Positions 34,506 to 57,490 are shown, counted from the first letter of the stretch. The stretch: 64,000 nt of DNA from a virus (IMGVR_UViG_3300024239_000013:33142-97141), one strand, 5' to 3'. The notes: generated by a model not told the origin, from the letters alone. A program made the numbers and translations.

Positions 34506-34831
34506 TACTTAAATCTTTTTATAACTTTAAGTTTATCTATTTCAAATGCCATTTCTTCTAGTGACTTAGTTTCAAATATTATTTCATTTTTATCAACATC
34601 CATCATTACTCTATCATACTCACCAGTTTCTTTATTTCTTACTACGAAACAAGCCACTTTTAAAGAATCGTTCTGCTCACCAGATCCCCATAATACTGAT
34701 TTATCGACTGCGTGTCTTGTGCTTATTTTGTCATGAAACCACTCGTGTGTTTCTGACTCCCAATACAAACCATCTCTTTCTAAAAATTCGTTTCTTTCCA
34801 TACTTATTTTTCTGTTGTTGGTTTTAGCCAC
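34505..34831 (-). CDS. hypothetical protein
   Basis: 108-aa ORF. Confidence 0.45.
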   Translation of the reverse strand: MAKTNNRKISMERNEFLERDGLYWESETHEWFHDKISTRHAVDKSVLWGSGEQNDSLKVACFVVRNKETGEYDRVMMDVDKNEIIFETKSLEEMAFEIDKLKVIKRFK

Positions 34832-35547
34832 ATTCCATTACTAAAAATGATCTGAATTATTCTTGGATTAATTTTCTTTATATTTTCTAATAGCTCAAGT
34901 GTTTTGATAGTGTCTTCTTTGAACATCTTAAATATCTCCTCCCTTATTCTTTCCTGAGAAACAACCTTTTCTAATTTATCGATAACTTCTTCGTTTGAAC
35001 AAACTTTCATAATCTCTTCCGAAATAGTAAATCCTTTTGTTACTGAAAATCTAAAAGCTCGTATAAGTCTTAATGGATCATCTAGCATGGTCTTTTCGGT
35101 TTCTAATGGTGTTATTAGGATTTTATTTTTCAAGTGCTCTAGACCACCAAAATGATCTATAATTCGACCATATTCATCTTTTGCTAAAGCATTCAAAGTA
35201 AAATCTCTTCTTTTTAAGTCGTCGTTAAGATTACCTGGTTTTATTATAGGTTGTCTAGTTCCTGGAAAATAACCAACCTCTTTTCTTGACATTACAAAAT
35301 CTGCAACCCCCTGATATTTGTGATTTGCTGGGAATTGTGCTCTTATTGTAAAACAATCGGGATGTGTTACAAATATTCTGAAACCCTCATTATTCAAATA
35401 GGTTTCCAGAATAGTAAACATTTCATAAGCTGTATAGTCTCTTGACAATAAACTTTCATACGGAACTGCTACATAATCAACATCCTTTGAAACCAAACCT
35501 AAAATTTCATCTCGGACCTTTCCTCCGACTTCGTAAAATGTAAACAT
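34804..35547 (-). CDS. minimal tRNA nucleotidyltransferase (CCA- or A-adding enzyme head domain; polymerase beta superfamily)
   Basis: GGKVRDEILG...DVDYV motif, RRDFTLNALA motif and DPLRLIRAFRF motif are the class-II CCA-adding head-domain signatures. Confidence 0.7.
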   Translation of the reverse strand: MFTFYEVGGKVRDEILGLVSKDVDYVAVPYESLLSRDYTAYEMFTILETYLNNEGFRIFVTHPDCFTIRAQFPANHKYQGVADFVMSRKEVGYFPGTRQPIIKPGNLNDDLKRRDFTLNALAKDEYGRIIDHFGGLEHLKNKILITPLETEKTMLDDPLRLIRAFRFSVTKGFTISEEIMKVCSNEEVIDKLEKVVSQERIREEIFKMFKEDTIKTLELLENIKKINPRIIQIIFSNGMWLKPTTEK

Positions 35548-35573
35548 TTTCTTTATTTTTTTAGCAAGATTAA

Positions 35574-35616
35574 TAAAAAAACACGAGGTATAAAAATTAT
35601 CCTCGTGTTTTTTTAA
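35574..35616. terminator. bidirectional terminator hairpin (CACGAGG-loop-CCTCGTG flanked by an A-run and a T-run)
   Basis: Read in the sequence. Confidence 0.55.
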
Positions 35617-35637
35617 AATTTTATTTAATCTAAATCA

Positions 35638-36114
35638 CTATTCCACCTTAAGAAACTTTAAAACCGAATCCCATCCAGGAAACTCCGATTGTCCAAAATG
35701 TATATGGGTTCCTTTGAAATCAGCAACCCCATTTGCTATTCTGTCATCTATTAAATAGTCACCCATTACTAGTCCTTTATTATGGCACAGAATTAATTTT
35801 TTCTTTGAAGTATTACCAAGATATTTTTGTACCCAATTTCTTTTCTCTGCCCAAGCATTAGGATTACTCCATGGTGGTGTGCTTAATATATAGGTTTCGT
35901 ATTTTTCCTGTAGTTTGTTCCATGCTTCAATAGCACCTTCAACAGGCTCTAGATCTTTGTAAGCATTTTCGTGCTTAAATAGGCTGTTACCCTTAATTCC
36001 TTGATTCTCTAGTTCTCTAGCTCTTTTATCGAAATCACAAATAACCCCATCCATATCTATGAGAACTATCGGTTTTGTGATTGGTATAGTTGCCCTTAAC
36101 CAGGATTTTTCCAT
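35638..36114 (-). CDS. 5'(3')-deoxyribonucleotidase (NT5C-type HAD phosphatase)
   Basis: HAD motif I LIDMDGVICDF and overall similarity to the 5'(3')-deoxyribonucleotidase family. Confidence 0.6.
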   Translation of the reverse strand: MEKSWLRATIPITKPIVLIDMDGVICDFDKRARELENQGIKGNSLFKHENAYKDLEPVEGAIEAWNKLQEKYETYILSTPPWSNPNAWAEKRNWVQKYLGNTSKKKLILCHNKGLVMGDYLIDDRIANGVADFKGTHIHFGQSEFPGWDSVLKFLKVE

Positions 36115-36489
36115 TTATTTAAAGTATTTAATTTTTATTTTTTCTGAGGCTAATCTATAAACATCCATAAAATCAGATAATTCAGAATCACTAAGATTCA
36201 GAATTCTTGACCCGACGCTTTCTAAATCAACATCAGATTCTGATTTATTTAATCTTAAAAAAGCTACAACAAAACAAGATTCATTAGATTGAAAGAAAGA
36301 TTTAGATATTTTGTGTCCATTTTTTTCTAAGAAATCTCCACCAAAACTATCGACATAGCCATCTTCTCTATATTCGTCCTCTTTTTCGAAAAGTTCGTTA
36401 ACTCCCCATTTAATAATTTCATAGAAAGGCTGCTCTGATTTAGTTGAGTTGTACTTTCTAGCCTCTATGTTGTTTATTCTAATTTTCAT
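36115..36489 (-). CDS. hypothetical protein
   Basis: 124-aa ORF. Confidence 0.45.
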   Translation of the reverse strand: MKIRINNIEARKYNSTKSEQPFYEIIKWGVNELFEKEDEYREDGYVDSFGGDFLEKNGHKISKSFFQSNESCFVVAFLRLNKSESDVDLESVGSRILNLSDSELSDFMDVYRLASEKIKIKYFK

Positions 36490-36494
36490 ATTCT

Positions 36495-36926
36495 TCAGCT
36501 TCTATAAATACATTCTTTATTTTTATAAATACTTAATACAGAACCCTGCCCGTGGGTAATCCCTATTTGGTAATTGTAATATTCGTAAACAGAAGATGGA
36601 AAATTCTCAGTAAATTCGTCTATTGGATCTATAACAGTTCCATATCTTGATGCAAATTCAAATATAAATGATGTGAGATTTAAAGGTTTATCCTGGTATG
36701 TTTGATAATGCTTAGCATCGTATCTATTCTGTTTAGACATAACCCTATCCATTATCGAATTGAATGAAGTTTCGTCTTTTATTTTTTCTCTAAATACTTG
36801 TATTCTTTCGTCTAAGATTGCTTCTTTAGCTTTAAGATTACTGATATATTCGGCAGTAGATTTTTTTCCTTCTGGACTGTCCAGATATTTTTTTAATCTT
36901 TCTGATAAGCTTTCAGTGTCTATCAT
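36495..36926 (-). CDS. hypothetical protein
   Basis: 143-aa ORF. Confidence 0.5.
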   Translation of the reverse strand: MIDTESLSERLKKYLDSPEGKKSTAEYISNLKAKEAILDERIQVFREKIKDETSFNSIMDRVMSKQNRYDAKHYQTYQDKPLNLTSFIFEFASRYGTVIDPIDEFTENFPSSVYEYYNYQIGITHGQGSVLSIYKNKECIYRS

Positions 36927-36938
36927 ATCCTATTTTTT

Positions 36939-37685
36939 TTATTTAATTCTTTCCCAAAATTCTCCTTTTTTCATCTTATTTTCAATTACATATTCAGCAG
37001 AAACAAAATCAAGTGCATCTTTAAGAACCTCTTCTGTGCATCCTCTTTCTGCATACGGATCATTAAATCTTGAAATGATGTCGATATCTCTAGGTTGATC
37101 TAATAATTCTTTAGGCTTATATGCTCTAACCTTACCTTTTTTAATCTCGAATTCAATAACTGGGATTTTTTCGCAATCCTCAGATATTTCCGAATTGATA
37201 AGTTGACATTTCAAATTAAGAAACGGAAACTCTTTAGCAATAATTATCCACTCATCATAGATCTCTCTAACATCTGGCCATTTTCCTATATTATAATTAT
37301 TACATCCTATATTTCCGTCCCATGAACACCATCCATGAGGACCACCTATCCAAGAAGATGCTATCCTATGATTATTCAAATAATATAAACCCGAAATTCT
37401 CCTGTATTTTTTAGCATAAAGTTCTTCTTTAAAGTCGTAAAGTTCCGAAAAATTGTTTAAATTAAATTCTTTCTTTAGCTCTACATAAAGATCGTTAGTG
37501 TCTAAATGATGTCCGAATATTAACTTATTGATTGTTTTTTCCCATTCTCTATCATTACAACAGAAGCTGAAACTATCTGTCCTAACTAGGATTTCCTTAG
37601 CCTGATCTTTCGTTACACTTTTACCTTTTACAATTAATCCCGGCCATTTGGGTAAATTAACTTCTAAAATGTTTTCCTTATTCAT
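36939..37685 (-). CDS. hypothetical protein
   Basis: 248-aa ORF. Confidence 0.5.
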   Translation of the reverse strand: MNKENILEVNLPKWPGLIVKGKSVTKDQAKEILVRTDSFSFCCNDREWEKTINKLIFGHHLDTNDLYVELKKEFNLNNFSELYDFKEELYAKKYRRISGLYYLNNHRIASSWIGGPHGWCSWDGNIGCNNYNIGKWPDVREIYDEWIIIAKEFPFLNLKCQLINSEISEDCEKIPVIEFEIKKGKVRAYKPKELLDQPRDIDIISRFNDPYAERGCTEEVLKDALDFVSAEYVIENKMKKGEFWERIK

Positions 37686-37749
37686 TTTATTTTTTTAGCA
37701 AATTTAACTCAAATGTACGGGAATTAAAAAAAATCTACGTGATATTTAA

Positions 37750-38166: not shown

Positions 38167-38625
38167 TTAATTTTCTGATATTTGACTTGAAATCTTTTTA
38201 ACTTTACCAATATCCGCTCTTCCTTGATATTTTTTATTAAACTCACCGATGGTTTTACCTATTAGCGCCTGCTTATTGGTAATCACGTTTTTAAAGCTTT
38301 TCATAATTTCTGAAAGTGCCTCTTCAACCTCTTTATCCGACATTTGTGCTGGCATATAATTTCTAAGAACTGAAGCTTCTGCAGATTCCTTTATAGCCAA
38401 ATCATGTCTTCCGTTTTTTTCAAAGATTTCAATTGACTCTTCCCTTTGCTTGATTGCCTTGTTAATTATTTTAAGAAAATCAGCATCTGTCATTTCCACA
38501 TTTGGATTTGATTTTTCTGCAAGTGTAATTGCTGATTTTACACTACTCAAAGCTGCCTTAGCATCATTGTCCTTATTCTTCATTGCAGATAAAAAATCTG
38601 CATTTACCCTTTCTTTAATTGTCAT
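38167..38625 (-). CDS. YqeY/GatB-domain protein
   Basis: Full-length similarity to the YqeY family (MKxxDxxAKxALSSxK..., KQREESIEIFEKNGRHDLAxKE, YMPxQMSDxE, GRADIGKV). Confidence 0.65.
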   Translation of the reverse strand: MTIKERVNADFLSAMKNKDNDAKAALSSVKSAITLAEKSNPNVEMTDADFLKIINKAIKQREESIEIFEKNGRHDLAIKESAEASVLRNYMPAQMSDKEVEEALSEIMKSFKNVITNKQALIGKTIGEFNKKYQGRADIGKVKKISSQISEN

Positions 38626-39457
38626 CTATCTTTGTTTTTAAAGTATTTCTAATAAAATCTCTTTCCTGTGTAAATATTGGGGTTTCTACAACAGACCATT
38701 TATTCCTTTTGTATGTTTCTCCATTTTCTATGTTATTCATAGTAACCTGAATTTTTTTAATTACCGCCCCCCTTTTTTTTCGGAAATCATAATCATTCCA
38801 GTTGATCCCCTTCTGAAAAATCATTTCTTGCAACTGGTCAGTTTTTACCCCATTTAATTGATTGTGACTATAAAGACTTTGTGCCACCGAAGAGATGCTA
38901 TTCCTTACTGCATCTTGTTGTCTCCAGATAAAGTAGTTTTCGACCTCATCTATAAAAGGGATTTGAAATGCTCTGGCATCGAACGTAGCAAGTTTGAAAT
39001 TTTCAATTTCAGATTCTTTTAAAAGATTTCCATCGTAATTCATCGAATGATTAGCAATTCCAAATTCATTACAAAACCTTTTCATTCTAAGTTGATTAAA
39101 TTTTGCTGTAGCCATAGATGATGCAACAGAAACCATTTTTTGCAAGTTATTATCAAACCATGCATGTGTTCCAAGATCGTCGAAATCTGTTAGTAAAAGA
39201 CTTATCTCATCTGACTGAACGTAACCTAACTTGGTTCCTTGTATGTTTTTGCAGAGATAAACTGTTGTCTCATTCATGTCTTCAATTAGACCTTCGTCAA
39301 ATGGACGTTCTAAACCTTTAGTGTAGGTGTGAAATGCTTTCCCGTCGATCCTGATGATCGTGTAAGTTCTTCTTGGGAGCTTGATCCTTGTTCTATCTTC
39401 GTAGAACTCTTTCATTCTGTCGCCTAATGCGTCTTTCATAATATTTGCTTTATGCAA
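38615..39457 (-). CDS. Thg1-like protein (tRNA-His guanylyltransferase family 3'-5' nucleotidyltransferase)
   Basis: GDRMKEFYE, IIRIDGKAFHTYTKGLERPFDE and YVQSDEISLL match the catalytic core of Thg1 and bacterial Thg1-like proteins. Confidence 0.75.
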   Translation of the reverse strand: MHKANIMKDALGDRMKEFYEDRTRIKLPRRTYTIIRIDGKAFHTYTKGLERPFDEGLIEDMNETTVYLCKNIQGTKLGYVQSDEISLLLTDFDDLGTHAWFDNNLQKMVSVASSMATAKFNQLRMKRFCNEFGIANHSMNYDGNLLKESEIENFKLATFDARAFQIPFIDEVENYFIWRQQDAVRNSISSVAQSLYSHNQLNGVKTDQLQEMIFQKGINWNDYDFRKKRGAVIKKIQVTMNNIENGETYKRNKWSVVETPIFTQERDFIRNTLKTKIDDN

Positions 39458-40655: not shown

Positions 40656-41174
40656 TTATCTGTTATAAATCACAACTGTTACTTTGCAATCTGTTATATT
40701 ATTGTGTATAATTTCCTTTATTCTTTCCCAATTTCCTCCAGCTAAACCTGAGCCTATTTTTGGCATCCCTATATGTTTCCCTTTAAAAACCATATTTAAT
40801 TTTCTCATGCATATGGTAAATGCTTCATAATCAAAAGGTATTCTAACCCCATCTTTATGATTCATCCCATATCTAAATTGTGTATACGCATTAACAACGG
40901 TTAGCTCTGGTTCGTTCCTATTGTTTTTGGCATCTTCCAAAGACCATATTGATCTTTCACCCAATACGAATGTCTGGTAATCTATATTACCTAATTTTTC
41001 TATGGAAGGACCGATTCTTTCCATATTGAATTTATCAGCTCCAAATGCCTTTGCCATCTGTGGAGCAATTCCAGCTCCCATTGTCGATTGACAATTACAA
41101 CCATGAACTATAACATCAAAATTTCCTTTTTTGGCCAGATCTATTAAATCCCCATATATTTCTTTGTATTCCAT
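40656..41174 (-). CDS. macro-domain protein (ADP-ribose binding/processing)
   Basis: VIVHGCNCQSTMGAGIAPQMAKAFG resembles the macro-domain N-x-x-N-x-x-L-G-G-G-G-V-x-G-A-I nucleotide-binding loop; about 170 aa as expected. Confidence 0.5.
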   Translation of the reverse strand: MEYKEIYGDLIDLAKKGNFDVIVHGCNCQSTMGAGIAPQMAKAFGADKFNMERIGPSIEKLGNIDYQTFVLGERSIWSLEDAKNNRNEPELTVVNAYTQFRYGMNHKDGVRIPFDYEAFTICMRKLNMVFKGKHIGMPKIGSGLAGGNWERIKEIIHNNITDCKVTVVIYNR

Positions 41175-42403: not shown

Positions 42404-42847
42404 TTATATTTTGATCTCTCTATTAATATCTCTTTCTATATCTCTATTTTTAATAACTTCCCTTTTATCATAGTTCTTTTTACCCCTAGATAAAGATATC
42501 TCTAATTTAAATAAGGACCTATCATTTTCATAAATTCTGCAAGGAACTATACTCATACCTTTTATTAGATCCTTTTGGAGTTTATTAAGCTCCTTTCTTT
42601 TTAATAAAAGTTTTCTATCTCTTTTTGGATTGTGTGAATAGTTTGGGTTCGTCGATGATATGTGTAGGTTTCTTATGAAAAGTTCATTATTTATAAAATA
42701 GCAATAAGAATCTGTAAAATCAATTCTATTTTCTCTAATAGATTTTACCTCAGATCCAACCAATTGAATCCCTGCATCTAATTTTTTTATAAATTCAAAT
42801 TCAAATTTTGCTTTTTTGTTAATGATATTTATTTTTGATGGTTTCAT
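42404..42847 (-). CDS. smpB: SmpB (SsrA/tmRNA-binding ribosome-rescue protein) homolog
   Basis: End-to-end collinearity with bacterial SmpB: KFEFEFIKKLDAGIQLVGSEVKSIRENRIDFTDSYCYF..., RKLLLKRKELNKL, GMSIVPCRIYENDRSLFKLEISLSRGKKNYDKRE. Confidence 0.75.
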   Translation of the reverse strand: MKPSKINIINKKAKFEFEFIKKLDAGIQLVGSEVKSIRENRIDFTDSYCYFINNELFIRNLHISSTNPNYSHNPKRDRKLLLKRKELNKLQKDLIKGMSIVPCRIYENDRSLFKLEISLSRGKKNYDKREVIKNRDIERDINREIKI

Positions 42848-43207: not shown

Positions 43208-43243
43208 CAAAAAAAATAAATCCTGGTTATTTAACCAGGATTT
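43208..43243 (-). terminator. terminator hairpin (AAATCCTGGTT-loop-AACCAGGATTT) followed by T8 on the minus strand
   Basis: 11-bp stem. Confidence 0.55.
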
Positions 43244-43625
43244 ATATCATCTTTAAAATATTTTTAACCTTCGTTGTTTTTTTCAATTTTTTCAATATTT
43301 CATCACTAATTTCTTCTTCTAGTGTAAATTCTAATCTTTGAGAATTCCCATTGGGAGAAAAGTTCCAATCAAATCCTATCCCAATAATCTTTTTTAGATT
43401 TTCCACCAATTCGTCCATATAATAGGATATCCTTTTGGGTATTCTACCGTCGAATAACATTGACCAATATTCTATTACAAATTGTTCTGAGTTGATGATT
43501 AAATAATCACATTCCATCATACGGTCCTTAAAAAATTCAGTAATATATGGCTTATAGAAATCTATTAAAAATTCCAGATTCTCTTTCTCATCATCGAAAT
43601 TCTCATAAATCTTAATGTTATTCAT
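43242..43625 (-). CDS. protein with targeting-like N-terminus (MNNIKIYENFDDEK)
   Basis: 127 aa. Confidence 0.55.
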   Translation of the reverse strand: MNNIKIYENFDDEKENLEFLIDFYKPYITEFFKDRMMECDYLIINSEQFVIEYWSMLFDGRIPKRISYYMDELVENLKKIIGIGFDWNFSPNGNSQRLEFTLEEEISDEILKKLKKTTKVKNILKMI

Positions 43626-44459: not shown

Positions 44460-44846
44460 TTAAACCTCAGCTACTTTTTCGATACTTTCATTTTTGTGTC
44501 TTGCTACTAGTTTATTATAAAGGCATTCAATCTCATCCAAGGAAAGATTACTTTTTTTCCCGTTTATATCAACTGTACATGCAACTACATTTCCTTCAAT
44601 ATAACCCTTAGCTGAATCTACCCTATCGAAGCTTCTGGAATAAATTCCTTCCTCTTCGAAAATCCTATTTGTATAGTAACATGTTGGATAAGATAGCAAT
44701 TTTTTAACAGATTCAAAATTTAGATCAAAATCAAGTTTCCTGTCCTGTGCACTCTGATAGATTTTTAACATTTTCTTAGCTACCTCTAGGTCACTGATTT
44801 CTTCTTTTTTTGTAATGGGTAAAGATTTTTTTTTAATTTTAGTCAT
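44460..44846 (-). mobile_element. small HNH endonuclease (HNH_3-like: CYYTN...FDRVDSAKGYIEGNVVAC...N)
   Basis: D-R-V-D-S-x-K-G-Y-x-x-G-N-V motif typical of phage HNH_3 endonucleases. Confidence 0.5.
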
Positions 44847-45716: not shown

Positions 45717-46454
45717 TTATTTCTCCTTTAGCAAGAATGAATTAGAAATGGATTTGAAAGATATTGTTTTATCCTTGTTTCTAATAACCACTCCTTCTCT
45801 CTCCGCTCCATTGTATAGTTTTGATTTACCCTCTGCGTAAAGAAGAATTTCATCGACAGTTTCTGGTAGGCTATAATTTTCCTCGAGCACAGGAACAAGT
45901 TCAAGTGGTTTATCGTCATTATTAACTTTAGATAGGAATTCCCTCATTTCATCTAATCCTAGATATTCTTGAGTGTCAATATTGAAAATATTGAAAACTC
46001 TAAGAGTATGCCCTTTTATTTTATATGGATTCCCTTGAATTCCTTCACCGATAAGTTCACCCTGGATTGCGTAATTTTGATTAAGAGATCCTAGTTTTTC
46101 TGCTATCTTTAGCTCTCTAGCAACCTTCCAGAATGTATTTTCTTTTTTGGTTCTTTCGACACCATCTTCACCAATGATAGTACCAGGTACAAATTCTCCA
46201 GGATCCGCTAACTCAAGGTTTCTTGAACAGACTCCGAAAACTCCGTCTTTTAAATAGAAGGTTGCGGAACTTCCGTCTAGTTTTTCAGTCACATAAAACC
46301 TTTCAGTCTTCCAGCCCTCGTACTCTTTGGTTAGATTTTGACAGTTATGTACTAAAATATCGTTTGCATAGAAGTTATGAACTTTATCTACTTCAATGTC
46401 ATAACGTTTTGATTCATGATTTATCTTCTTAATAGATTTAATTTTATCTAACAT
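45717..46454 (-). CDS. C-terminal half of a fractured polynucleotide ligase. The C-half of a split intein (residues 1-37, ...KVHNFYANDILVHN; about 46344-46454) is fused to an Rnl2-like nucleotidyltransferase domain starting at Cys+1 (CQNL...VTEKLDGSSATFYLKDG)
   Basis: Split-intein C-half-like terminal HN followed by Cys; KxDG adenylyltransferase motif I, motif IV GEGIQG and motif V REGVVIR in the extein. Confidence 0.7.
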   Translation of the reverse strand: MLDKIKSIKKINHESKRYDIEVDKVHNFYANDILVHNCQNLTKEYEGWKTERFYVTEKLDGSSATFYLKDGVFGVCSRNLELADPGEFVPGTIIGEDGVERTKKENTFWKVARELKIAEKLGSLNQNYAIQGELIGEGIQGNPYKIKGHTLRVFNIFNIDTQEYLGLDEMREFLSKVNNDDKPLELVPVLEENYSLPETVDEILLYAEGKSKLYNGAEREGVVIRNKDKTISFKSISNSFLLKEK

Positions 46455-47416
46455 AGTATTTCTTTTAAAAGGTTATAGATTTCTTCGTTTGTCATATTAT
46501 TAATATCACTCTCCCAAAAATAGTGAACTGTATATCCTTTAGATTCTATAAGCTTACGTTTCCGATTGTCTTTCTTCCAAACATCCTTTGCTAAAAGACC
46601 ATCTAAAAGAACGTCAGACTCTTTATAGAACTTAGGATTAGCATGCCAAAAGTCACCTTGAACTTCTATGATAACTTTATTCTTAAATATCAGATCCCAG
46701 TTATATGCATATAGAAATCCGTTTGCCGTATATTCTACATCTAATTGATTTAGTATTGTCTGAATTCTGATCTCTTGACTACTTACATAATTTATATTAG
46801 CTCTTGCTTTTTCTGTCATCCGCCTGCGTTCATCCGCCGTCATTTTAGATATTCTTTTCTTCTGTGACTCTCCAATCTTCACCGAAACACCTGGGATTTG
46901 AGAAGGATTATAAACGCTATCTCCGTATTTTTTGATAAGAGTATCTCTTATAGATTCTTGGGCCTTTTCATAGTCTATATGTGACTGTGCAACCTTCCGT
47001 ATCTTTGGGTTGCAGAAGTTGTTCTCATATCCAAAGTTCTTTAGGAACGTCTCTTTCTTTTTTTTCTTGATGGCTTTAGCCTGTGATGGATTCTTAACCC
47101 CAAACCGTTTCATATTAGTAGACTCAATCTTATCTTTATAAACCTTGGTCTTTTTGCTTTCGCTATTAGTTCGTTTAATCCCAAGTAATTCGATATAATT
47201 TGCAAATGAAACCCCATACATTTCTTTAAGATCAGAGACATTATAACCTTCAAGATATAGATCCTTTACCGTATCGAAGGTTCTATCTTCTATTTCTATT
47301 TGAGATTTAATGTAGTTTACCTCATTTGTTAATTTATTAATGTTGTGATGTCTATTAATGTGTATTTTTAATATGTTCGTTTGATTGAATTCTTTATTGC
47401 AGATAATACACCTCAT
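46448..47416 (-). mobile_element. free-standing homing-endonuclease-like gene located between the two ligase halves; N-terminal C2H2 zinc finger (CIICNKEF...HINRHH) plus C-terminal Vsr-like/DUF559 PD-(D/E)xK nuclease domain (IIEVQGDFWHANP...KDNRKRKLIESKGYTVHYFWESD)
   Basis: Motifs read in the translation; genomic position matches the fractured-gene arrangement. Confidence 0.6.
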
Positions 47417-47490: not shown

Positions 47491-48300
47491 TTAGGTTATT
47501 TTAACGGTTTCATTACCTAAAAGATCTCTAACTTCTCTGAAGCATTTTAATTCAGGAAGCCAAATACGATGATTTCCAGTAGCTTTAATAGTCTTACCAG
47601 ACTCTAGTTCAATCATGTACCAATCGTTATTATTCTTTTGAATAGAATGACTGTTAATGGAGTTCATTTCATTTTCATCAGTTATAGTATTGTATGATAG
47701 AACCTTACCTGTATACTTTGACTCACAGATTTCCTTGATAGTCATTGGACCGTCTTCTGTGTTAACAATAACATCTTCAGACAAGCATCTTTCTTCATCA
47801 GTCTTTCTGATAAATGACGGGAAGTATCCCTTAACCTTTCCTGCTAGCTGTGCTGGAATAGGAGGTTCGTATTTTATGATTCCGAGAAGATCTGTTACAT
47901 CTAGACCCTCTTCTATAACAATAGAACCACCAGTCCCCAATTGTAATTTGTCTCCTTGTGGTTGTTTGCTAATTCCAACGACCATTTCTTTTTCACTTCT
48001 CAAAGTAGATAAAGGCAATAAAAGCCCTTGACTTAATTCTTGTCTAAGTCTAATAGTCTTTAATCTAAATCCTTCAATGTCCCCCATTTTTTTATATGAG
48101 GATTTTCTTAGAAATTCGAATTTTTCATCAATTGGTAAGAATGAATCAACTTCACAATAAATAGCCAATTCTCCCTCCTTATATTCTCCAATTCTAGTTA
48201 TAACTTTCCATCCACCAATATGACAAATCTCAAGTGAGTCTGCATTGGGATGTTTAGTTATTTTATCAATTCTCTTTACTGATGCTAATTTTCTTTCCAT
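47491..48300 (-). CDS. N-terminal half of the fractured polynucleotide ligase. N-extein (residues 1-171, with a tRNA-binding-domain-like OB N-terminus KHPNADSLEICHIGGWKV) is fused to the N-half of a split intein (residues 172-269, CLSEDVIVNTEDGPMTIKEI...IKATGNHRIW...; about 47494-47787)
   Basis: The intein N-half is collinear with DnaE split-intein N-halves (CLSYETEILTVEYGLLPIGKI...IRATKDHKF...); the ORF terminates right after the intein block. Confidence 0.7.
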   Translation of the reverse strand: MERKLASVKRIDKITKHPNADSLEICHIGGWKVITRIGEYKEGELAIYCEVDSFLPIDEKFEFLRKSSYKKMGDIEGFRLKTIRLRQELSQGLLLPLSTLRSEKEMVVGISKQPQGDKLQLGTGGSIVIEEGLDVTDLLGIIKYEPPIPAQLAGKVKGYFPSFIRKTDEERCLSEDVIVNTEDGPMTIKEICESKYTGKVLSYNTITDENEMNSINSHSIQKNNNDWYMIELESGKTIKATGNHRIWLPELKCFREVRDLLGNETVKIT

Positions 48301-49092: not shown

Positions 49093-49671
49093 ATGAAATA
49101 TCCAAAGAAGTATCTCACAGCAAATCCAAATGTAATGAAAAGAGAGATTAAAAAACACGGGGGAAAGGAAGACGACGATTCTTCCGCATACGGACCCTGG
49201 GATGCTGATTATAAAAGTAGAAAAGCTGGAAAGGGTAAACCGATTCCAACTAAACAGTCTAAATACACAAAAAAATACAAGGAACTCTTTGGAGAAAAAG
49301 AAAATTTTGAATCTAAAAACATACTAGATTTTGATGTGTTTAATCTACCAGACAATCTATTTGAGGATATAATTATAGAAAATACTGAAATTACCGAAAA
49401 GGTTATTATGGAATCTTCGATGGAGAAAGATGGTCCTATATATAAGGCTTTAAAAAAGAAATCTGATAAAACTGGATTTCCTCTAAATATATTAAAAAAA
49501 GTTTGGTCTAGAGGGTATTCAGCCTGGAAAACCGGTCATATTCCTGGGACTACACCCCAGCAATGGGCTATGGCTAGAGTTAATTCTTTTGTTACTGGTG
49601 GTAAAACAACTAAAATGTCCGATAAGGCACTATATGACCAGGCAAAGAAAAACAAGAAACAAAAAAGGTAG
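49093..49671 (+). CDS. hypothetical basic protein
   Basis: 192-aa ORF. Confidence 0.55.
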   Translation: MKYPKKYLTANPNVMKREIKKHGGKEDDDSSAYGPWDADYKSRKAGKGKPIPTKQSKYTKKYKELFGEKENFESKNILDFDVFNLPDNLFEDIIIENTEITEKVIMESSMEKDGPIYKALKKKSDKTGFPLNILKKVWSRGYSAWKTGHIPGTTPQQWAMARVNSFVTGGKTTKMSDKALYDQAKKNKKQKR

Positions 49672-50721: not shown

Positions 50722-51773
50722 CTATTTTTTAAATCTATTAAAAGAATTGACGGTGATCAAATTCCATTTAACTTTACCTATAAAATAATTAAGACTCCTT
50801 GAATTTGTGTAACTCATTGCAGAACTTAAATAGCTTTTTAAGTTATCAACCCATCCGTTGATTGTATATTCAACCGGCTGCATTCTAGTAACACCCTCGC
50901 TAGTTTTAAGTACAGTTTTACCCATTGCTAACTGTGCCTCCTTGGTACTCATTCCTCTGAACTTCTTAAACATTTTGGTTCCGAAGTTAAATAGCTGTTC
51001 AGTTTCCTTGGAGTATTGATCTACTCTTTCTCCAGGCTCTGTCCACCCTTCTTTTTTATTGTTTGCAAGATATGTTTCCCCGCACTCTCTAGAGCTTTAT
51101 TTAATATAGACCCAAGCATAATATAATCTGCTCCTAAAGCCAATCCTTTAATAATATCAGAATAACTTTTAAATCCACCATCAGCAACTATTTTTGAAGG
51201 ATTCGTTAGAGATTTTTTAATTCGATAACACTCATCAATTAGTGATGCCATAGGATAACCGATACCTGTCTGAACTGTAGTAAGACATCCTCCCCCATTA
51301 CCAATACCAATTCTAATATAATCTGCTCCGGCATCTGAAAAAATCTTATATGTTTCAGGATAAGCAACATTCCCGACCATTAATACTAAATCTTCTCCGT
51401 ACATATCTTTGCCTTTTTTGACTAGATCTAGTAATTTAGTCATATGGCCGTTAGCTATATCGATAAGAATATAATACTTTCCCTCTCTCTTATTTTTAAT
51501 AAAGAGTTCTTCGAATTGGTCCATTCCAATAGCTCTAAAAAAATCGAAAGATGTATTTTCTAAATTGGAATCAGAATATTCGGTCCTTGGCATTATTACT
51601 TTGATTCCTGCTTTAAGGAAGAAATCTTTATTTTCTTCACAAATTACAGTATCCATAGGTGCTGTAAAAAGGGGAAGATATCCATCCTCATATAAAACAT
51701 TAACTTCTTTTCTTGAAGTAATTTCGCTAATCGTAGCGGGAGTAATTAAAATATCATCAAAATCAAATTTCAT
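50722..51773 (-). pseudogene. GMP reductase / IMPDH-family (beta/alpha)8 enzyme interrupted by a -1 frameshift at a GGGGAAA tract (about 51085-51095). N-part is track ORF 51021..51773; C-part continues in the -1 frame through KMFKKFRGMSTKEAQ...EGVTRMQPVEY to 50722
   Basis: N-part carries the conserved GIGNGGGCLTTVQTGIGYP and ADGGFKSYSDIIKGLALGADYIMLGS blocks; hand translation of the other frame restores the canonical ...ESxGE-x-Y...RGMSS...EGKTV C-terminus. Confidence 0.6.
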
Positions 51774-52085
51774 TTATTTAGTTTTTTTTAAGTAATTAAC
51801 AACTGATTGTAATTTATCCGCATCCTTTTCGTTAAAGATGAATTCATCAAAAGCACCATAATTACATTTTCTCCCGAAAATATACATTAAGCCGTATTTT
51901 AATCTTTCAAAGAAAGGTCTTTTGTTTAGATGTATATGAAAATAACACATTGGATGTTTTACCCCATTAATATCATCATCGCTATATAAAATAATCATTT
52001 GATGTTCAGTCGAATAGCAACTACACAAAAGAATGTCTTTTTTATCGGTCATTTCCGATTCTTTTAAAAAATCTGTTTCCTCCAT
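51774..52085 (-). CDS. hypothetical protein
   Basis: 103-aa ORF. Confidence 0.45.
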   Translation of the reverse strand: MEETDFLKESEMTDKKDILLCSCYSTEHQMIILYSDDDINGVKHPMCYFHIHLNKRPFFERLKYGLMYIFGRKCNYGAFDEFIFNEKDADKLQSVVNYLKKTK

Positions 52086-52116: not shown

Positions 52117-52452
52117 TTAATTCTCCTCGTACACATCAAACCCATCTTGATCATAATGATATTCGCAACAAGGATACGGTCTTCCTTTTTCGTCTATCTT
52201 TTGCCAAGCTTTTTTCTCATAGCTAACCCATATCCAATCAACACCTTCAATTCCAATTGGATGATCCTCAGATTCCAATGGGGGATCGTATGAATATGGG
52301 TCGATGTATCTATGACCACATTCACATTCTCTATTTACACAATCGTCGCATACATATGGACTGCTTCCGTCTCTGTATCCTGGAACGTAACACCATACGG
52401 CTAATTTTCCGCAATCACACAATATTTTTTCTTTATTACCAACTGTCAACAT
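52117..52452 (-). CDS. Cys-rich (zinc-binding?) hypothetical protein
   Basis: CDCGK...CDDCVNRECECGH clusters. Confidence 0.45.
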   Translation of the reverse strand: MLTVGNKEKILCDCGKLAVWCYVPGYRDGSSPYVCDDCVNRECECGHRYIDPYSYDPPLESEDHPIGIEGVDWIWVSYEKKAWQKIDEKGRPYPCCEYHYDQDGFDVYEEN

Positions 52453-52639
52453 CTGTTAAATCTAATTCTGTTTTTGTTAAATGACTATATACCGATATTT
52501 CCAAACCTATAGAATTGGGTGTTATTTTCCAAGTAAATGTTCCATATTCACCATAAATAGCCTTAATGTGACTAATCCATTCCTGATATAAAGAATTCTG
52601 CTTATCGGATAATTCTGCATGAATTACCTTATTATTCAT
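52436..52639 (-). CDS. hypothetical protein
   Basis: 67-aa ORF. Confidence 0.4.
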   Translation of the reverse strand: MNNKVIHAELSDKQNSLYQEWISHIKAIYGEYGTFTWKITPNSIGLEISVYSHLTKTELDLTDVDSW

Positions 52640-52653: not shown

Positions 52654-53328
52654 TTATTTCAACTTTTTAGATTTGATAACTTCATCAATTATACCATATT
52701 CAACTGCATCTTCTGAGCTTAACCAGAAATCTCTGGTTGCATCATTTTTTACCTGTTCGGCAGTTTTTCCACAATATTCGCCAAGAAGCTCAAATAAAAT
52801 CTCATTGTATTTTTTCCACTCTAACATATCAATTTCTGCGTCTTGTATGTTTCCGCTAAATCCACCGCTGGATTGGTGAAGCATAACCTTACTAAATCTT
52901 AGTGAGGCTCTTTTACCCTTAGTTCCTGCTCCCAATAAAACAGATCCCATTGAAGCTGCCATTCCTGTATTCACTGTTACTATGTCGGATTTAATGTAAC
53001 CCATAACGTCAACCATACTAAGTCCAGATTTAACAGATCCTCCTGGTGTGTCAATATGCATTGTAATGTCTCTATCATCAACAGAATCTAGAAACATAAG
53101 TTGTGCTTGTACAACGGTAGACATGTCGTCGTTAACAACTCCCGCAACCCAAAGAATTCTATCCATCATTAACCTATCAAAGACTGTCATCTGAGTAACT
53201 CTAAGCTGTCTCTCCTCGAGAATCATAGGAGTCATTGATGACTGGATTTTTTTGTCATAATAATCCAATTTCATAGAACTTATTCCGCTGCTCAGAGCAT
53301 ATTTTTTAAATTCCGCTGATGTATTCAT
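52654..53328 (-). CDS. clpP: ClpP-family serine protease. Probable start at the internal Met (MNTSAEFKK...); the track ORF extends to 53403
   Basis: Full-length ClpP similarity: DRILWVAGVVND, IDTPGGSVKSGLSMVDVM, GMAASMGSVLLGAGTKGKR, MLHQSSGGFSGNIQDAEI. Confidence 0.7.
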   Translation of the reverse strand: MNTSAEFKKYALSSGISSMKLDYYDKKIQSSMTPMILEERQLRVTQMTVFDRLMMDRILWVAGVVNDDMSTVVQAQLMFLDSVDDRDITMHIDTPGGSVKSGLSMVDVMGYIKSDIVTVNTGMAASMGSVLLGAGTKGKRASLRFSKVMLHQSSGGFSGNIQDAEIDMLEWKKYNEILFELLGEYCGKTAEQVKNDATRDFWLSSEDAVEYGIIDEVIKSKKLK

Positions 53329-53350
53329 ATTTAATCTATATTTTGTTTTT

Positions 53351-53755
53351 TTAATAATGTAAATCAATAAATAAAAAATCCTGATCGTCTTTATAGCTAA
53401 CACAACTCCAAGCAGGATGATATTGTTCTTTCAGCTCATCCCCAATCTCAATAATATTCGATAATGGATCCTCGATATCATATTCAGGTTCAAGACCACA
53501 TTCTCTTCTTTTAGATTCTTTTAAAAGATTTTCATTCATTTTTTTTGCTGAATGATAGGTAACACCTTCCTTTAGATAAACCCCCCAATCATTTCTTTCG
53601 AAATAAAAGTCCTCAACCCTCTGTATCATTATTTTTGCGTCATCTGGGATTCCATTTTTCTTTACGAATTCCTTTAGCCCACCAACAGTCAAATGCTGTT
53701 TATAATTCTTAATATCTTCTTTTGTGAGTTTTTTAATATTATTTTTATTCCTCAT
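53351..53755 (-). CDS. hypothetical protein
   Basis: 134-aa ORF. Confidence 0.45.
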   Translation of the reverse strand: MRNKNNIKKLTKEDIKNYKQHLTVGGLKEFVKKNGIPDDAKIMIQRVEDFYFERNDWGVYLKEGVTYHSAKKMNENLLKESKRRECGLEPEYDIEDPLSNIIEIGDELKEQYHPAWSCVSYKDDQDFLFIDLHY

Positions 53756-54150
53756 TTTTTTCTAAATTTAACATAGTTTTCTAAATATGAGGAGATGTTT
53801 TTTCCTCCTGCAGGATTCATAGAATGAACCAAATATTCAGGAAGATCCAAATCATTATCTATACAATAATCAACCAACCACTTTGCACAATCTAACCCAG
53901 TTTTTTCTTTAAATCTTTTGTACAATTTATTATAAGAACCCCCGTACATTTTTGGAGAGTAATGCTCATCAGCGAGGTCATGATCAAAAGAAATTATCTT
54001 AGGAAGACCTTTTTTGATGATGTAATCAACAAACTCGTCATAGTTTCTAACGATTACCCATTCCAATTTAGAATATATTGGGAGCTTCATATACTTTATA
54101 CAGTCATAAGGATGTCTAAAATCATCCAGAAATAAATTGTAATTCATCAT
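53752..54150 (-). CDS. hypothetical protein
   Basis: 132-aa ORF. Confidence 0.45.
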   Translation of the reverse strand: MMNYNLFLDDFRHPYDCIKYMKLPIYSKLEWVIVRNYDEFVDYIIKKGLPKIISFDHDLADEHYSPKMYGGSYNKLYKRFKEKTGLDCAKWLVDYCIDNDLDLPEYLVHSMNPAGGKNISSYLENYVKFRKK

Positions 54151-54161
54151 TATTTTTCCGT

Positions 54162-54542: not shown

Positions 54543-54543
54543 A

Positions 54544-55284: not shown

Positions 55285-55288
55285 ATTT

Positions 55289-55708
55289 TTATAATTCTAT
55301 TTCAAATCTATCTTTCATTTTTCTTATAGATTCTTCAGGAACCTCGTGAACATTAGTTCCCCCGTGTCTGTTCTCTATAATTATACTAGTTACCATATAA
55401 CCATATTCCTTTGCCAATTTGAAATATGGTTCCATTTCCCATTCTTGTGTAAATGTATTGGAAACTACTATTTCTGGATAATATCGAGAGTTTTGTTTAT
55501 TCTCTTTCATTCTATTCTCAACCTCATTTCTACACCATTCATGTGCAGCTTTTAATTTAGAAGGATTGAAATTATATTCCCCAGTTTCTTTATCGTAGAA
55601 ATATTTGTCAGCCTCGCATATTTCACAATCATTCCAAAGATGTCTTGCGAATGTAGATTTACCAGAGCCAGGTACACCTCTAATTAAAAATAGTGTAGGA
55701 TTCAACAT
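55289..55708 (-). CDS. polynucleotide 5'-kinase (T4 Pnk kinase-domain-like P-loop protein)
   Basis: LIRGVPGSGKSTFARHL versus T4 Pnk TIGCPGSGKSTWAREF; LAKEYGYMV versus T4 FAKEYGWKV. Confidence 0.65.
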   Translation of the reverse strand: MLNPTLFLIRGVPGSGKSTFARHLWNDCEICEADKYFYDKETGEYNFNPSKLKAAHEWCRNEVENRMKENKQNSRYYPEIVVSNTFTQEWEMEPYFKLAKEYGYMVTSIIIENRHGGTNVHEVPEESIRKMKDRFEIEL

Positions 55709-55741
55709 TTTTGTGGATTTTTTTAGATTTAATTTATTAAA

Positions 55742-56386
55742 TTAATTTTCCATGTGATGGTCTTTAGGTAGGACAAGAGTCTTTATTGGTCTGCCTTTTA
55801 AAATACCTAAGATCTCGTCTAGACTATATGGCTTTAAATCGTTACCATCAACTCCTACATCCATTGCTCTCCCCGAATTTACCTTTAAATTAGGTGGAAG
55901 ATGAACGTGTCCATGCAGATGTGGAACTCCCCTCCCCATATCTTCCCAGCTAGCAACAGGGAAGTGACTGCAGAAAAATTTGTATTTTTCAGTTTCTTTA
56001 TCCCGAGGTCTTCTTATTTCTAAGATATCATAGAATGCAACTTCTTTGAATATCTCTTGAATACCTTCTCTATTATTTTTTATGTGATGATCGTGATTTC
56101 CAAGAAATATGATAATATTCTTACATTTTATTTGAGATCTAAATTGTTCTATGGATTCAAATCCACCAAAACTCCAATCCCCTAAGTGGACTAAATAATC
56201 ATTCTCGTCAACATATAAATTTATTCCGTTAACAAGAGCGGAATTCATTTCCCCTAAGCTGTGGAAATCCCTAGTTCTGCTGGATTTATCACTCCAAGTT
56301 GAAACTCCTCGACAAATATTCTGGTGTGAATAGTGAGTATCGCTAGTAAACCAAATTTTCTGGTTCTTTTCTAATGTTATTTTCAT
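55742..56386 (-). CDS. calcineurin-like metallophosphoesterase (candidate 2',3'-cyclic/3'-phosphate end-healing phosphatase)
   Basis: WFTSDTHYSH, GDWSFGG, GNHDHH and HGHVH metallophosphoesterase motifs; sits between the kinase and Rnl1 genes, as in bacterial Pnkp. Confidence 0.6.
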   Translation of the reverse strand: MKITLEKNQKIWFTSDTHYSHQNICRGVSTWSDKSSRTRDFHSLGEMNSALVNGINLYVDENDYLVHLGDWSFGGFESIEQFRSQIKCKNIIIFLGNHDHHIKNNREGIQEIFKEVAFYDILEIRRPRDKETEKYKFFCSHFPVASWEDMGRGVPHLHGHVHLPPNLKVNSGRAMDVGVDGNDLKPYSLDEILGILKGRPIKTLVLPKDHHMEN

Positions 56387-56392
56387 AATTAT

Positions 56393-57490
56393 CTAATCTT
56401 CTGTTTTATTCCAAAATGGTTTTTGATATTTGGGTCTTATCATTTTCCAGATTTTTTCTGAATAGTCATTCCCATCATAGAACATAAATAAAATACTTGT
56501 TATATCTCTATCTTGTTCTTTTGCCCATTCTGCAAATTCCTTCCTTCCTTTATCTTTTTCAAAATCTGGTCTTTTTTCAAAGAAGCTCTTGTAAATATCG
56601 TTTACTCTTTCCTCTATTGATGAATAGTTATATTTCAATTCTTTTATTATTTTCTTCACCCAAAGATCAAATTCATCAGGAACCCTATCCAAAAAATTAC
56701 CAAGATCCTGTTTATTTTTTAAGAGCTCCCAGATATCCACATTCGAGAAGTTTGTCAATAGTCTATGTAATCTAACATATTCCTCGCCTTTTATTTTCAT
56801 TCTGAATCCGGAAGAAAATCTAATAACGAAACCCTCGGAATTTGAAGATATTATTTTTTTAAGCTCTTTGTAATTATTAAGACCGTCATATTTTTTAACT
56901 ACTTTAAACCCTATAGTTCCTAGAATACCCTGGTTTTTTAAGTTCATTAAGCTTTTTTCGTCAGAGTGAATATCATATTCATATCCATCTAAATTATCAA
57001 TAACTGAAAGTAAAATGATATCCTCAAAATCATAGCTAACAACTATTCGATTTTCTGGGTAGATAATCTCGAATAAATAAGTGCAATCTTTCAACAAATC
57101 CTTATAATGATATTTCTCCAATATAGATCTTCCCCTTATCGCTTGCTCTGAAGTGAATGATCCTTTTGTAGCAAAATGCCATTCCCCTTCGTAATTGAAA
57201 AGTATACCCAAGGATCCGTCCATCTTCTCGAAAACATCAAAATTTTCGTTCGGAATATCGCTAGAATCCAATTCTTCTAAATTAAAGAATTTAGGAAATG
57301 TCCTTGCAACGACATTTCCTTCCCTATCAAGAACCGTCCCTCTCATATTAAGAGTGATTTCATCCCACTCTTTAGAGAATTGGCACTCTCTTGAATAGTT
57401 ATAAATATCCAAAGGTAATGATGGATGAGAATTTTTTTCTAAAAGACCTCTTTCAATATAGGAATTGAGAATATTTATATCGTATTTCAT
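56393..57490 (-). CDS. RNA ligase 1 (T4 gene 63 / Rnl1-like tRNA repair ligase)
   Basis: Collinear with T4 Rnl1: MRGTVL (CRGIMF), FPKFFNL (PMEKFFNL), motif I EKMDGSL (KEDGSL), ATKGSFTSEQA (FKSKGSIKSEQA), EIIYPENRIVVSY. Confidence 0.75.
   Translation of the reverse strand: MKYDINILNSYIERGLLEKNSHPSLPLDIYNYSRECQFSKEWDEITLNMRGTVLDREGNVVARTFPKFFNLEELDSSDIPNENFDVFEKMDGSLGILFNYEGEWHFATKGSFTSEQAIRGRSILEKYHYKDLLKDCTYLFEIIYPENRIVVSYDFEDIILLSVIDNLDGYEYDIHSDEKSLMNLKNQGILGTIGFKVVKKYDGLNNYKELKKIISSNSEGFVIRFSSGFRMKIKGEEYVRLHRLLTNFSNVDIWELLKNKQDLGNFLDRVPDEFDLWVKKIIKELKYNYSSIEERVNDIYKSFFEKRPDFEKDKGRKEFAEWAKEQDRDITSILFMFYDGNDYSEKIWKMIRPKYQKPFWNKTED

Follow-up and report, generated by a model that had tools for sequence, protein, structure and literature searches.

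The DNA analysed here is a stretch of 64,000 nucleotides (nt) from a virus (IMGVR_UViG_3300024239_000013:33142-97141), which will be referred to as the window. Between positions 34804 and 57490 it carries about 40 tightly packed open reading frames (ORFs), among them genes of RNA ligase, RNA end-healing, tRNA nucleotidyltransferase and SmpB families. We favour, with moderate confidence, the reading that this region is a modular accessory island, which would maintain usable tRNAs and ribosomes in the infected cell and is arranged in four predicted leftward units sharing one type of promoter. All ten recognisable RNA or translation genes of the window fall within the region, which holds about 40 of the window's approximately 109 ORFs (hypergeometric 2e-5), and no RNA- or translation-related domain was detected among the approximately 69 window ORFs outside it. 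Nearly all enzyme genes named by the original prediction, an earlier reading of this DNA, were borne out on the minus strand by sequence searches against Pfam, NCBIfam and PDB; one repair-type gene, cREC at 53752-54150, had been overlooked. Rnl1, the phosphoesterase, the kinase and cREC have kept their catalytic motifs intact, as have ClpP, the Thg1-like protein, the nucleotidyltransferase and SmpB. The earlier statement that one strand encodes the whole set holds for all genes except the plus-strand gene at 49093-49671.

SmpB and its neighbours match exactly a 276,364-bp contig of an ENA metagenome assembly, and no near-identical DNA was found among GenBank phages. The source is probably an uncultivated jumbo phage of about 276 kb with a host within the Bacteroidota. 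This host is suggested by the closest cellular SmpB homologues (44-54% identity, almost all from Bacteroidota), by Shine-Dalgarno-like motifs upstream of just 10 of 61 genes, and by an intergenic TAnnTTTG box, which we take to be the -7 promoter element of Bacteroidota.

Enzyme families and predicted transcription units

The rightmost part of the region encodes a putative healing-and-sealing cassette.

56393-57490, minus strand: Rnl1-family RNA ligase, 365 amino acids (aa), first gene of unit 1
55742-56386, minus strand: calcineurin-like metallophosphoesterase, predicted 3'-end healing enzyme (Pfam Metallophos, 1.5e-6)
55289-55708, minus strand: small P-loop kinase, 139 aa, predicted 5'-OH polynucleotide kinase (Pfam AAA_33, 2.7e-10)
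53752-54150, minus strand: cREC (cyclic-phosphate-processing receiver) protein (Pfam cREC_REC PF20274, 3.9e-20)

The ligase matched Pfam RNA_lig_T4_1 (2.3e-18; 67.3 bits against a gathering score of 28.3) and contains the motifs KMDGS, EGFVIR and KIKG. Its likeness to T4 Rnl1 is confined to the nucleotidyltransferase domain: the match to PDB entries 2c5u/5tt6 (2e-12) spans residues 46-252 only and does not cover the C-terminal tRNA-specificity domain, and the protein misses the NCBIfam equivalog cut-off for T4 RnlA (TIGR02308, 69 versus 242 bits). The phosphoesterase shows the motifs DTHY, GDW, GNHD and GHVH. The kinase weakly resembles the kinase part of bacterial Pnkp (5.9e-5, far under the NCBIfam model cut-off), and its presumed 5'-OH substrate is suggested by context, the gene lying close to Rnl1 in 47 of 71 loci (see below). 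The cREC protein scored 72.7 bits against a gathering score of 27 and carries the motifs FLDDFR and FDHDL with the conserved acidic residues DD and DHD. Proteins of this family are predicted to be cyclic phosphodiesterases (PMC7824862, PMC9503650), their enzymatic activity being uncharacterised in the literature too (PMC9503650).

A second ligase was predicted to be split by an intein and to contain a domain resembling tRNA-binding domains, and both features were recovered in the pieces at 47491-48300 and 45717-46454.

47788-48300, minus strand: N-extein of an Rnl5/DraRnl-type ligase, 171 aa, OB-fold, tRNA-binding-like (Pfam PHA02142, 1.7e-33)
47491-47787, minus strand: N-terminal split-intein fragment, 98 aa, beginning with CLSED, containing TGNH and ending with a stop codon (Pfam Intein_splicing, 1.7e-13)
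46448-47416, minus strand: free-standing homing endonuclease gene, 322 aa, between the intein halves (phrog_3339, 5.8e-11)
46344-46454, minus strand: C-terminal split-intein fragment, 37 aa, ending with VHN
45717-46343, minus strand: C-extein, ligase nucleotidyltransferase domain, beginning with CQN (Pfam RNA_ligase, 1.6e-28)

The intein boundaries were set by alignment with nine uninterrupted orthologues, which read KTDEER[I/V]QN at the position where the N-extein of the window stops at DEER. The locus shows a Cys at the start of the intein, TxxH, an HN|Cys junction, separate ORFs, an endonuclease gene between the halves and an uninterrupted gene elsewhere. Since the split intein and the free-standing homing endonuclease gene have fractured the ligase gene, a functional product would need protein trans-splicing. 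The 379-aa ligase spliced in silico passed TIGR02306 (RNA_lig_DRB0094; 190.5 versus 151 bits) and matched the Naegleria ligase NgrRnl (5cot) with 2.6e-70. Its nucleotidyltransferase domain contains EKLDGSS (motif I), EGVVIR and FKSIS. The homing endonuclease ORF matched Pfam DUF7487, with weak Vsr-like DUF559 and zinc-finger matches.

The third and fourth groups hold the ribosome rescue factor and the enzymes that may act on tRNA ends.

42404-42847, minus strand: SmpB (Pfam SmpB, 4.5e-44), with the C-terminal tail motif GKKNYDKR
40656-41174, minus strand: macro-like protein, 172 aa (phrog_335 'phosphatase', 8.9e-45)
38615-39457, minus strand: bacterial-type Thg1-like protein, a 3'-5' nucleotidyltransferase homologue (Pfam Thg1, 8.8e-29; 100.5 versus 29.2 bits)
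38167-38625, minus strand: YqeY (GatB/YqeY-domain) protein (Pfam YqeY, 8.7e-34)
34804-35547, minus strand: short class II tRNA nucleotidyltransferase, 247 aa, head and neck only (Pfam PolyA_pol, 3.6e-14)

SmpB cleared both NCBIfam equivalog cut-offs (NF003843, 158 versus 130 bits; TIGR00086, 156 versus 119 bits). For the protein previously named a macro domain, the Pfam Macro gathering score was not reached (0.0065, 16.8 versus 22 bits, over the first 25 profile positions only). The assignment is upheld by phrog_335, by macro-fold structures in PDB (2fg1/2afc, 3e-7; macrodomain 5e3b, 5.6e-5; Poa1p 6lfu, 7e-5) and by the macro domain of DarG (2.5e-7 in NCBIfam, 8e-9 in PADLOC); this DarG similarity was the only match in a PADLOC scan of the unknown proteins. 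The Thg1 homologue, which contains the motifs RIDGKAF and SDE, belongs by sequence to the bacterial Thg1-like type: its best PDB match was 4kgk, the Thg1-like protein of Bacillus thuringiensis (8.6e-65), and eukaryotic Thg1 followed at about 1e-11 (3wbz, 9e-12). The YqeY gene overlaps its 3' end by 11 nt, and YqeY and Thg1 together were not mentioned in any paper of the literature searched. The enzyme at 34804-35547, earlier termed a CCA-adding enzyme, proved to have a class II head and neck with the nucleotidyltransferase motifs A-E (GGKVRD/DVD, RRDFT, DDPLR and ERIREE); full-length architecture and an equivalog-level score were both wanting. The best NCBIfam CCA model gave 98 versus 290 bits over roughly the first 220 of 396 positions, and CCA-adding, A-adding and poly(A) enzymes in PDB (390-580 aa) were matched about equally. 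It will be referred to as the CCA-type enzyme.

A promoter-like motif, consisting of a T-run, (A)TCCCG, a spacing of exactly 11 nt and TAnnTTTG, occurs in ten copies in the window. All are intergenic, each preceding a minus-strand gene on that same strand, and the plus strand has none; copies end near 2773, 19989, 23309, 28720, 32967, 37699, 43185, 48904 and 57509. For the TAnnTTTG box as such, 7 of 19 minus-strand occurrences are located in the intergenic 8% of the sequence. A scan for sigma-70-type promoters yielded fewer sites than in shuffled sequence. Because four copies of the motif lie in the region together with hairpins followed by T-runs, the sequence predicts four leftward transcription units of one promoter class rather than one operon.

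57490 to 49677, minus strand: unit 1, opening with the Rnl1 cassette
48765 to 43242, minus strand: unit 2, with the Rnl5-type ligase
43158 to about 37750, minus strand: unit 3, with SmpB and the macro-like, Thg1-like and YqeY proteins
37685 to about 33000, minus strand: unit 4, ending with NT5C and the CCA-type enzyme
57509-57542, minus strand: promoter-like motif (ATCCCG form), 19 nt upstream of Rnl1; same position in relatives L094, L095 and L098
48904-48935, minus strand: promoter-like motif upstream of the CxxCxxCC/ligase unit; likewise in L094 and L096, and at the start of the CxxCxxCC gene in L099
43185-43216, minus strand: promoter-like motif upstream of the 42844-43158/SmpB unit; kept in L057
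37699-37733, minus strand: promoter-like motif upstream of ORF 36939-37685; kept in L057
49667-49686, both strands: hairpin with T-run between the convergent SLT gene (minus) and 49093-49671 (plus), predicted end of unit 1
43216-43245, minus strand: 13-bp hairpin with T-run immediately behind the stop codon of ORF 43242-43625, where unit 2 is predicted to end

The motif probably marks phage promoters of a single temporal class, recognised by a sigma factor of the Bacteroidota type.

Recurrence of the modules in relatives

To follow the genes in other phages, 190 IMG/VR loci were gathered with SmpB, Thg1, Rnl1 and the nucleotidyltransferase as probes and were scanned with all proteins of the region. 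Such a scan sees homologues of window proteins only, analogous enzymes of other families being invisible to it, and linkage was counted in distinct loci after collapsing duplicates and within 10 kb of the anchor gene. Around Rnl1 (71 distinct loci), the phosphoesterase was found in 51, the kinase in 47, cREC in 22 and the Rnl5-type ligase in 15. Around Thg1 (62 distinct loci), YqeY was found in 13, the macro-like protein in 12 and the CCA-type enzyme in 11; YqeY lies directly downstream of Thg1 in three loci (L014, L015 and L043). These counts show two tight modules, namely Rnl1-phosphoesterase-kinase, partly with cREC, and Thg1, partly with YqeY, macro and CCA.

The modules stay close in shuffled orders and are united in one island only among closer relatives. 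The nearest relative, IMGVR_UViG_3300017917_003822 (270,629 bp; loci L094 and L057), has kept the order from Rnl1 to the CCA-type enzyme, with 73-75% protein identity for Rnl1 and Thg1 and with an uninterrupted ligase gene; no homologue of YqeY or GMP reductase was detectable in its homologous stretch. Elsewhere YqeY, SmpB, Thg1 and the ligase lie within about 5 kb amid ten tRNA genes (L039), Thg1, YqeY, CCA and cREC within 7 kb (L020), ClpP, kinase, phosphoesterase, CCA, ligase and cREC within 12 kb (L179-183), and cREC, phosphoesterase, ligase and Rnl1 within 4 kb (L145), and a 434-kb contig carries ligase, CCA and SmpB together (L192). Relatives therefore did not carry the genes scattered: the nearest keeps the arrangement and distant ones hold subsets in 4-12 kb. 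Among GenBank phage records, homologues of Thg1 were present in 164 and of SmpB in 56, each including 15 Prevotella phage records; the Prevotella phages with SmpB, among the matches listed, are Lak phages. The best phage match of SmpB (52% identity) came from the 735-kb phage LR756501.

Neither tRNA nor tmRNA (transfer-messenger RNA) genes were detected by ARAGORN in the whole 64 kb. Rfam returned no tRNA-like or other known RNA gene over the window, neither at gathering scores nor at E<=1, and counterparts of the relatives' tmRNAs were not found in it by nhmmer. The neighbouring tRNA-like genes formerly described thus had to be dropped, and so had a TGA-containing ORF, as no minus-strand ORF interrupted by TGA occurs in the region. 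Recoding of TGA was considered and rejected, stop codon usage being ordinary (TAA 30, TAG 7, TGA 3). In the related loci, tRNA arrays are interleaved with homologues of the repair genes in 54 of 190 cases, and 223 of 265 distinct tRNA genes (84%) have no encoded CCA, so that part of the set may instead serve the plain maturation of phage tRNAs. One tRNA-His gene (10855-10931 in L041) begins 20 nt beyond the stop codon of the Thg1-like gene and belongs to an array of 11 tRNAs; this tRNA needs no Thg1, because both a G-1 opposite C73 and a CCA are encoded in its gene. In Lak-B1 and in phage LR756501, SmpB adjoins tRNA arrays. In L006 a tmRNA gene (9458-9855) immediately precedes SmpB, and in L164, L165 and L172 (L165: 17117-17507) one is situated some 7 kb away from the Rnl1 module. 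The tmRNAs of the relatives encode unusually long tag peptides, GNTFAKLAALGLTKEAAVVGA and GNVINKLSAVGLIRTEESVAVA. ARAGORN further called tRNAs with four-base anticodons (taca, ttac) in phage arrays (L161, 3392-3484; L285, that is LR756501, 29244-29334), which could be frameshift-suppressor-like or prediction artefacts.

Proposed role and competing explanations

During infection, cREC, the calcineurin-like phosphoesterase or both would clear the 2',3'-cyclic phosphate or 3'-phosphate that anticodon nucleases leave behind, the 5'-OH of the broken tRNA would receive its phosphate through the small P-loop kinase, and Rnl1 would seal the healed break, thereby following the logic of T4 Pnkp and Rnl1 through separate polypeptides. 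Unit 2 would supply a nick-sealing ligase of the Rnl5/DraRnl type after protein trans-splicing. SmpB may drive trans-translation with a tmRNA encoded outside the window, and the macro-like protein may serve as an ADP-ribose(-phosphate) hydrolase. The Thg1-like protein, as a template-dependent 3'-5' polymerase, might rebuild tRNA 5' ends, with YqeY as a possible tRNA-binding partner, and the minimal class II nucleotidyltransferase of unit 4 would add or restore the 3'-CCA. The gene families are those that healing and sealing of tRNA breaks, restoration of both tRNA ends and trans-translation would call for, which bears out the original prediction in part. Judged from the gene content, a role in counter-defence is plausible. 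Host nuclease attack and routine maturation of phage tRNAs that are encoded without CCA probably both contribute to selection, and the two readings are about equally live.

Several observations weigh against this reading. About 25 of the 40 genes of the region have no assigned function, and tRNA and tmRNA genes are both missing from the window. The CCA-type enzyme has neither body nor tail domains and fails every curated CCA model, and the kinase gave no significant match to a solved polynucleotide kinase, its sole PDB match being AvrRxo1 (1e-3). Thg1 and SmpB were each found within 10 kb of Rnl1 in none of 71 loci, and Rnl1 lay near Thg1 in just 1 of 62. Among the fetched loci the full 23-kb arrangement occurs in the nearest relative only, where it may be simply inherited synteny, and in cultured Bacillus and Staphylococcus phages Thg1 stands amid mostly hypothetical genes with no annotated repair gene nearby. 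The promoters and terminators given here are pattern matches, and the promoter class is not specific to repair genes, since it also serves the Band_7 gene (motif at 32967-32998) and five other units of the window.

The set might instead be housekeeping for the phage's own translation, with CCA addition, maturation or proofreading of tRNA 5' ends (e.g., G-1 of tRNA-His by the Thg1-like protein), clearing of ribosomes stalled on phage messages by SmpB with a phage or host tmRNA, and mending of routine breaks by the ligases; we consider this a real though rather unlikely alternative. It would account for the high proportion of related-locus tRNA genes without CCA and for the many relatives with repair genes amid tRNA arrays, including SmpB near the arrays of Lak-B1 and the 735-kb phage, and SmpB, tmRNA and CCA-adding enzymes have indeed been placed in a general translation repertoire (PMC7162821). 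The tRNA-His gene next to Thg1 in L041 seems to fit as well, but it encodes its own G-1 and CCA. The kinase-phosphoesterase-cREC-Rnl1 cassette, however, is sensible only for the 2',3'-cyclic phosphate and 5'-OH breaks made by metal-independent nucleases, the only characterised analogue of this cassette, T4 Pnkp/Rnl1, is a counter-defence system (PMC7824862), and the window itself holds no tRNA genes.

Opposite in kind are the views that everything in the region belongs together and that nothing does. The original prediction saw one coordinated, co-evolving counter-defence system that includes NT5C, GMP reductase, ClpP and a recoding layer, which we hold to be highly improbable. All genes but one do lie on one strand, the four units share a promoter type, and the whole arrangement is kept by the nearest relative. 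Against it, there are at least four predicted units with a plus-strand gene in the middle of the region, the promoter type is common to unrelated genes, the modules recombine independently, the GMP reductase gene is frameshifted and, like YqeY, missing from the homologous stretch of the nearest relative, and the tRNA-like genes and the TGA-interrupted ORF do not exist. An accidental neighbourhood, that is a generic hypervariable accessory (moron) region where lateral acquisitions pile up, appears highly improbable. It would explain why unknown or unrelated genes (SLT, ClpP, NT5C, HNH endonuclease and homing endonuclease among them) make up about 25 of the 40, why the order is heavily shuffled among relatives, and why SmpB resembles a host-derived acquisition. 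The same families nevertheless recur together, shuffled, in many contigs (35-434 kb), about 70% of loci retain the link of Rnl1, phosphoesterase and kinase, and the window ORFs outside the region have no RNA-related domain. A modular island acting on tRNAs and ribosomes is the reading that we retain.

The combination of genes had been taken to be undescribed; such suites are in fact reported by Iyer et al. 2021 and 2022 and by Al-Shayeb et al. 2020. The 'RNA repair/ribosome rescue' suites of jumbo phages comprise tRNAs, Rnl1, Rnl2 or RtcB ligases, kinases, and calcineurin-like and other phosphoesterases, as well as cRec, a CCA-adding enzyme and Thg1, and are read as a counter to host attack on the translation apparatus (PMC7824862). 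Inventory and logic of these suites (Iyer et al. 2021, Viruses 13:63, section 3.4.9) are like those of the region, in which RNA ligases, end-healing enzymes and end-restoring nucleotidyltransferases likewise come together in one large phage. The rescue factor there is PTH2, not SmpB, the words SmpB, tmRNA and YqeY are absent, Thg1 is called sporadic, and phyletic patterns are reported rather than a single 23-kb island (PMC7824862). An Rnl1-cREC-kinase(-calcineurin) neighbourhood has also been described (PMC9503650): in phages V5 and Mydo it reads Sirtuin-Rnl1-cREC-kinase-MazG(-calcineurin) (Iyer et al. 2022, Viruses 14:1977), whereas neither sirtuin nor MazG was detected in the window with Pfam. 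Huge phages above 200 kb encode SmpB, tmRNA and CCA-adding enzymes (Al-Shayeb et al. 2020, Nature 578:425; PMC7162821); the window, in contrast, is without tmRNA and tRNA. In Lak-B1 and LR756501 the only repair-type gene found within about 25 kb of SmpB was an Rnl5-like ligase, in LR756501.

Phage T4 Pnkp and Rnl1 repair tRNA-Lys cleaved by PrrC through removal of the 3'-phosphate, 5'-phosphorylation and sealing. The cassette of the region resembles this pair in that end healing would be followed by sealing through an Rnl1-family ligase, but T4 uses one bifunctional kinase-HAD phosphatase, whereas here a 139-aa kinase, a calcineurin-like phosphoesterase and cREC are separate. In Clostridium thermocellum, Pnkp combines kinase, metallophosphoesterase and ligase, and a calcineurin-type phosphoesterase does the healing. 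The same three chemistries are predicted for the region, and its kinase weakly matches the Pnkp model; unlike bacterial Pnkp/Hen1, it has separate genes and an Rnl1-type ligase, and no Hen1 methyltransferase was detected. The second ligase shares an N-terminal OB domain and a C-terminal nucleotidyltransferase domain with the Rnl5 ligases of Naegleria gruberi and Deinococcus radiodurans, and differs from NgrRnl in the split-intein interruption and in insertions (379 versus 340 aa). Its organisation is that of the 'fractured genes', in which a host gene falls into two ORFs, one ending and the other beginning with a split-intein half, and a free-standing homing endonuclease gene separates them (Dassa et al. 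2009, NAR 37:2560), the fractured gene here being an Rnl5-type RNA ligase.

The region is a rich and unusually dense example of the known jumbo-phage repair suites, not a new type of system, and it leaves the current picture of phage counter-defence unchanged. Less familiar are the density of the island, the Thg1-like/YqeY pair, the body-less nucleotidyltransferase, the intein-fractured Rnl5-type ligase and three travelling unknown families. It offers a compact natural example of one large phage bundling tRNA end healing, sealing, 5'- and 3'-end restoration and trans-translation, and the reshuffled relatives provide an entry point to the matching of modules with nucleases, to the biochemistry of cREC, the CCA-type enzyme and Thg1-YqeY, and to the functions of the travelling unknowns.

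Neighbouring genes and further observations

Further genes in and beside the region are as follows.

52654-53403, minus strand: ClpP protease (Pfam CLP_protease, 3.3e-54; motifs AASMG and LHQS)
52436-52639, minus strand: conserved 67-aa ORF, within 10 kb of Rnl1 in 15 of 71 loci
51774-52085, minus strand: small Cys/His-rich protein, 103 aa, with invariant Cys/His and a GAFDEF motif
50722-51773, minus strand: GMP-reductase-like gene, two ORFs (51021-51773 and 50722-50973; Pfam IMPDH, 3.3e-36)
49093-49671, plus strand: DUF5824 gene, the only gene to break the region's minus-strand run
36939-37685, minus strand: conserved protein, 248 aa, with an invariant GGPHGWC...NYNIGKWP motif
35638-36114, minus strand: 5'(3')-deoxyribonucleotidase NT5C (Pfam NT5C, 3.9e-18), a nucleotide-pool enzyme and not an RNA repair enzyme
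31028-32923, minus strand: SPFH/Band_7 protein, 631 aa, just outside the region and with its own copy of the promoter motif

NT5C, the GMP reductase, ClpP, SLT and some 25 unknown ORFs are taken for passengers, or at any rate for genes with no demonstrated tie to repair. A tie of ClpP to tmRNA tagging is speculative. NT5C has CCA, Thg1 or both as near neighbours in several relatives. The gene named a GMP reductase does contain a domain of the IMPDH/GMPR superfamily; it is not an intact ORF, and its product stays under all NCBIfam equivalog cut-offs (best 108 versus 344 bits). A 1-nt frameshift in the run of G at 51078-51081 divides the gene into two ORFs. In the relatives L096, L097 and L099 there is a single ORF, reading LESAGDTYLANTKGEGW, and one G added to the window sequence restored a 350-aa GMP-reductase-like protein. 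A programmed -1 frameshift at A_AAA_AAG was rejected, as the relatives place the frame change 27 nt upstream at the run of four G. By sequence comparison the frame change appears as a plain 1-nt indel or an assembly error, so that the gene could be a real pseudogene or misassembled.

Three families of unassigned function travel with the repair genes. The 248-aa protein has more than 578 homologues in huge phages and giant viruses, with Edafosvirus and the Achromobacter phage Motura matched by fold, and its family recurs beside Thg1, Band_7 and NT5C in huge phages; its structure was predicted with confidence and had no convincing match in PDB. The 103-aa Cys/His protein accompanies cREC, the phosphoesterase, the Rnl5-type ligase, Rnl1 and CCA in rearranged relatives and, even in a 62-kb phage, sits beside the genes of cREC and phosphoesterase; an AlphaFold2 model (pLDDT 76) gave no fold match. 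The 67-aa ORF stands directly upstream of Rnl1 in several relatives and accompanies cREC, the phosphoesterase and the Rnl5-type ligase. It is conceivable, if doubtful, that the island belongs to a recombining 'translation-maintenance' supermodule with undescribed parts, which would be the Thg1-like/YqeY pair with YqeY as tRNA-binding partner, the body-less CCA-type enzyme and these three families.

The Band_7 protein is very strongly conserved (E=0) and adjoins SmpB, CCA or Thg1 in L005, L189 and L036-L038. An HNH/endonuclease-VII-like ORF (44460-44846, minus strand) lies in the ligase unit and is found a few kb from the ligase in three of the closer relatives, L095, L097 and L098.

The first window ORFs (342-656, minus strand) are recorded on a separate 89-kb contig (k141_784618, locus L194), on which no tRNA genes were found and which belongs to the ENA assembly holding the 276-kb contig; for the last window ORF no record was found. 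The window may stem from a second assembly of this phage, or the 89-kb and 276-kb contigs may overlap. Farther from the region, the plus strand at 5488-17661 carries about 11 tandem paralogues of 231-320 aa with leucine-rich repeats (LRR_4), which have near-identical N- and C-termini and a varying number of repeats of about 21 aa; this array, which lacks the leftward promoter motif, forms the window's sole long block on the plus strand. A plus-strand gene at 28815-29384, 5 kb from the region, encodes a P-loop protein (AAA_28, NadR-like kinase) with weak similarity to KTI12, which could tie it to NAD or tRNA metabolism.

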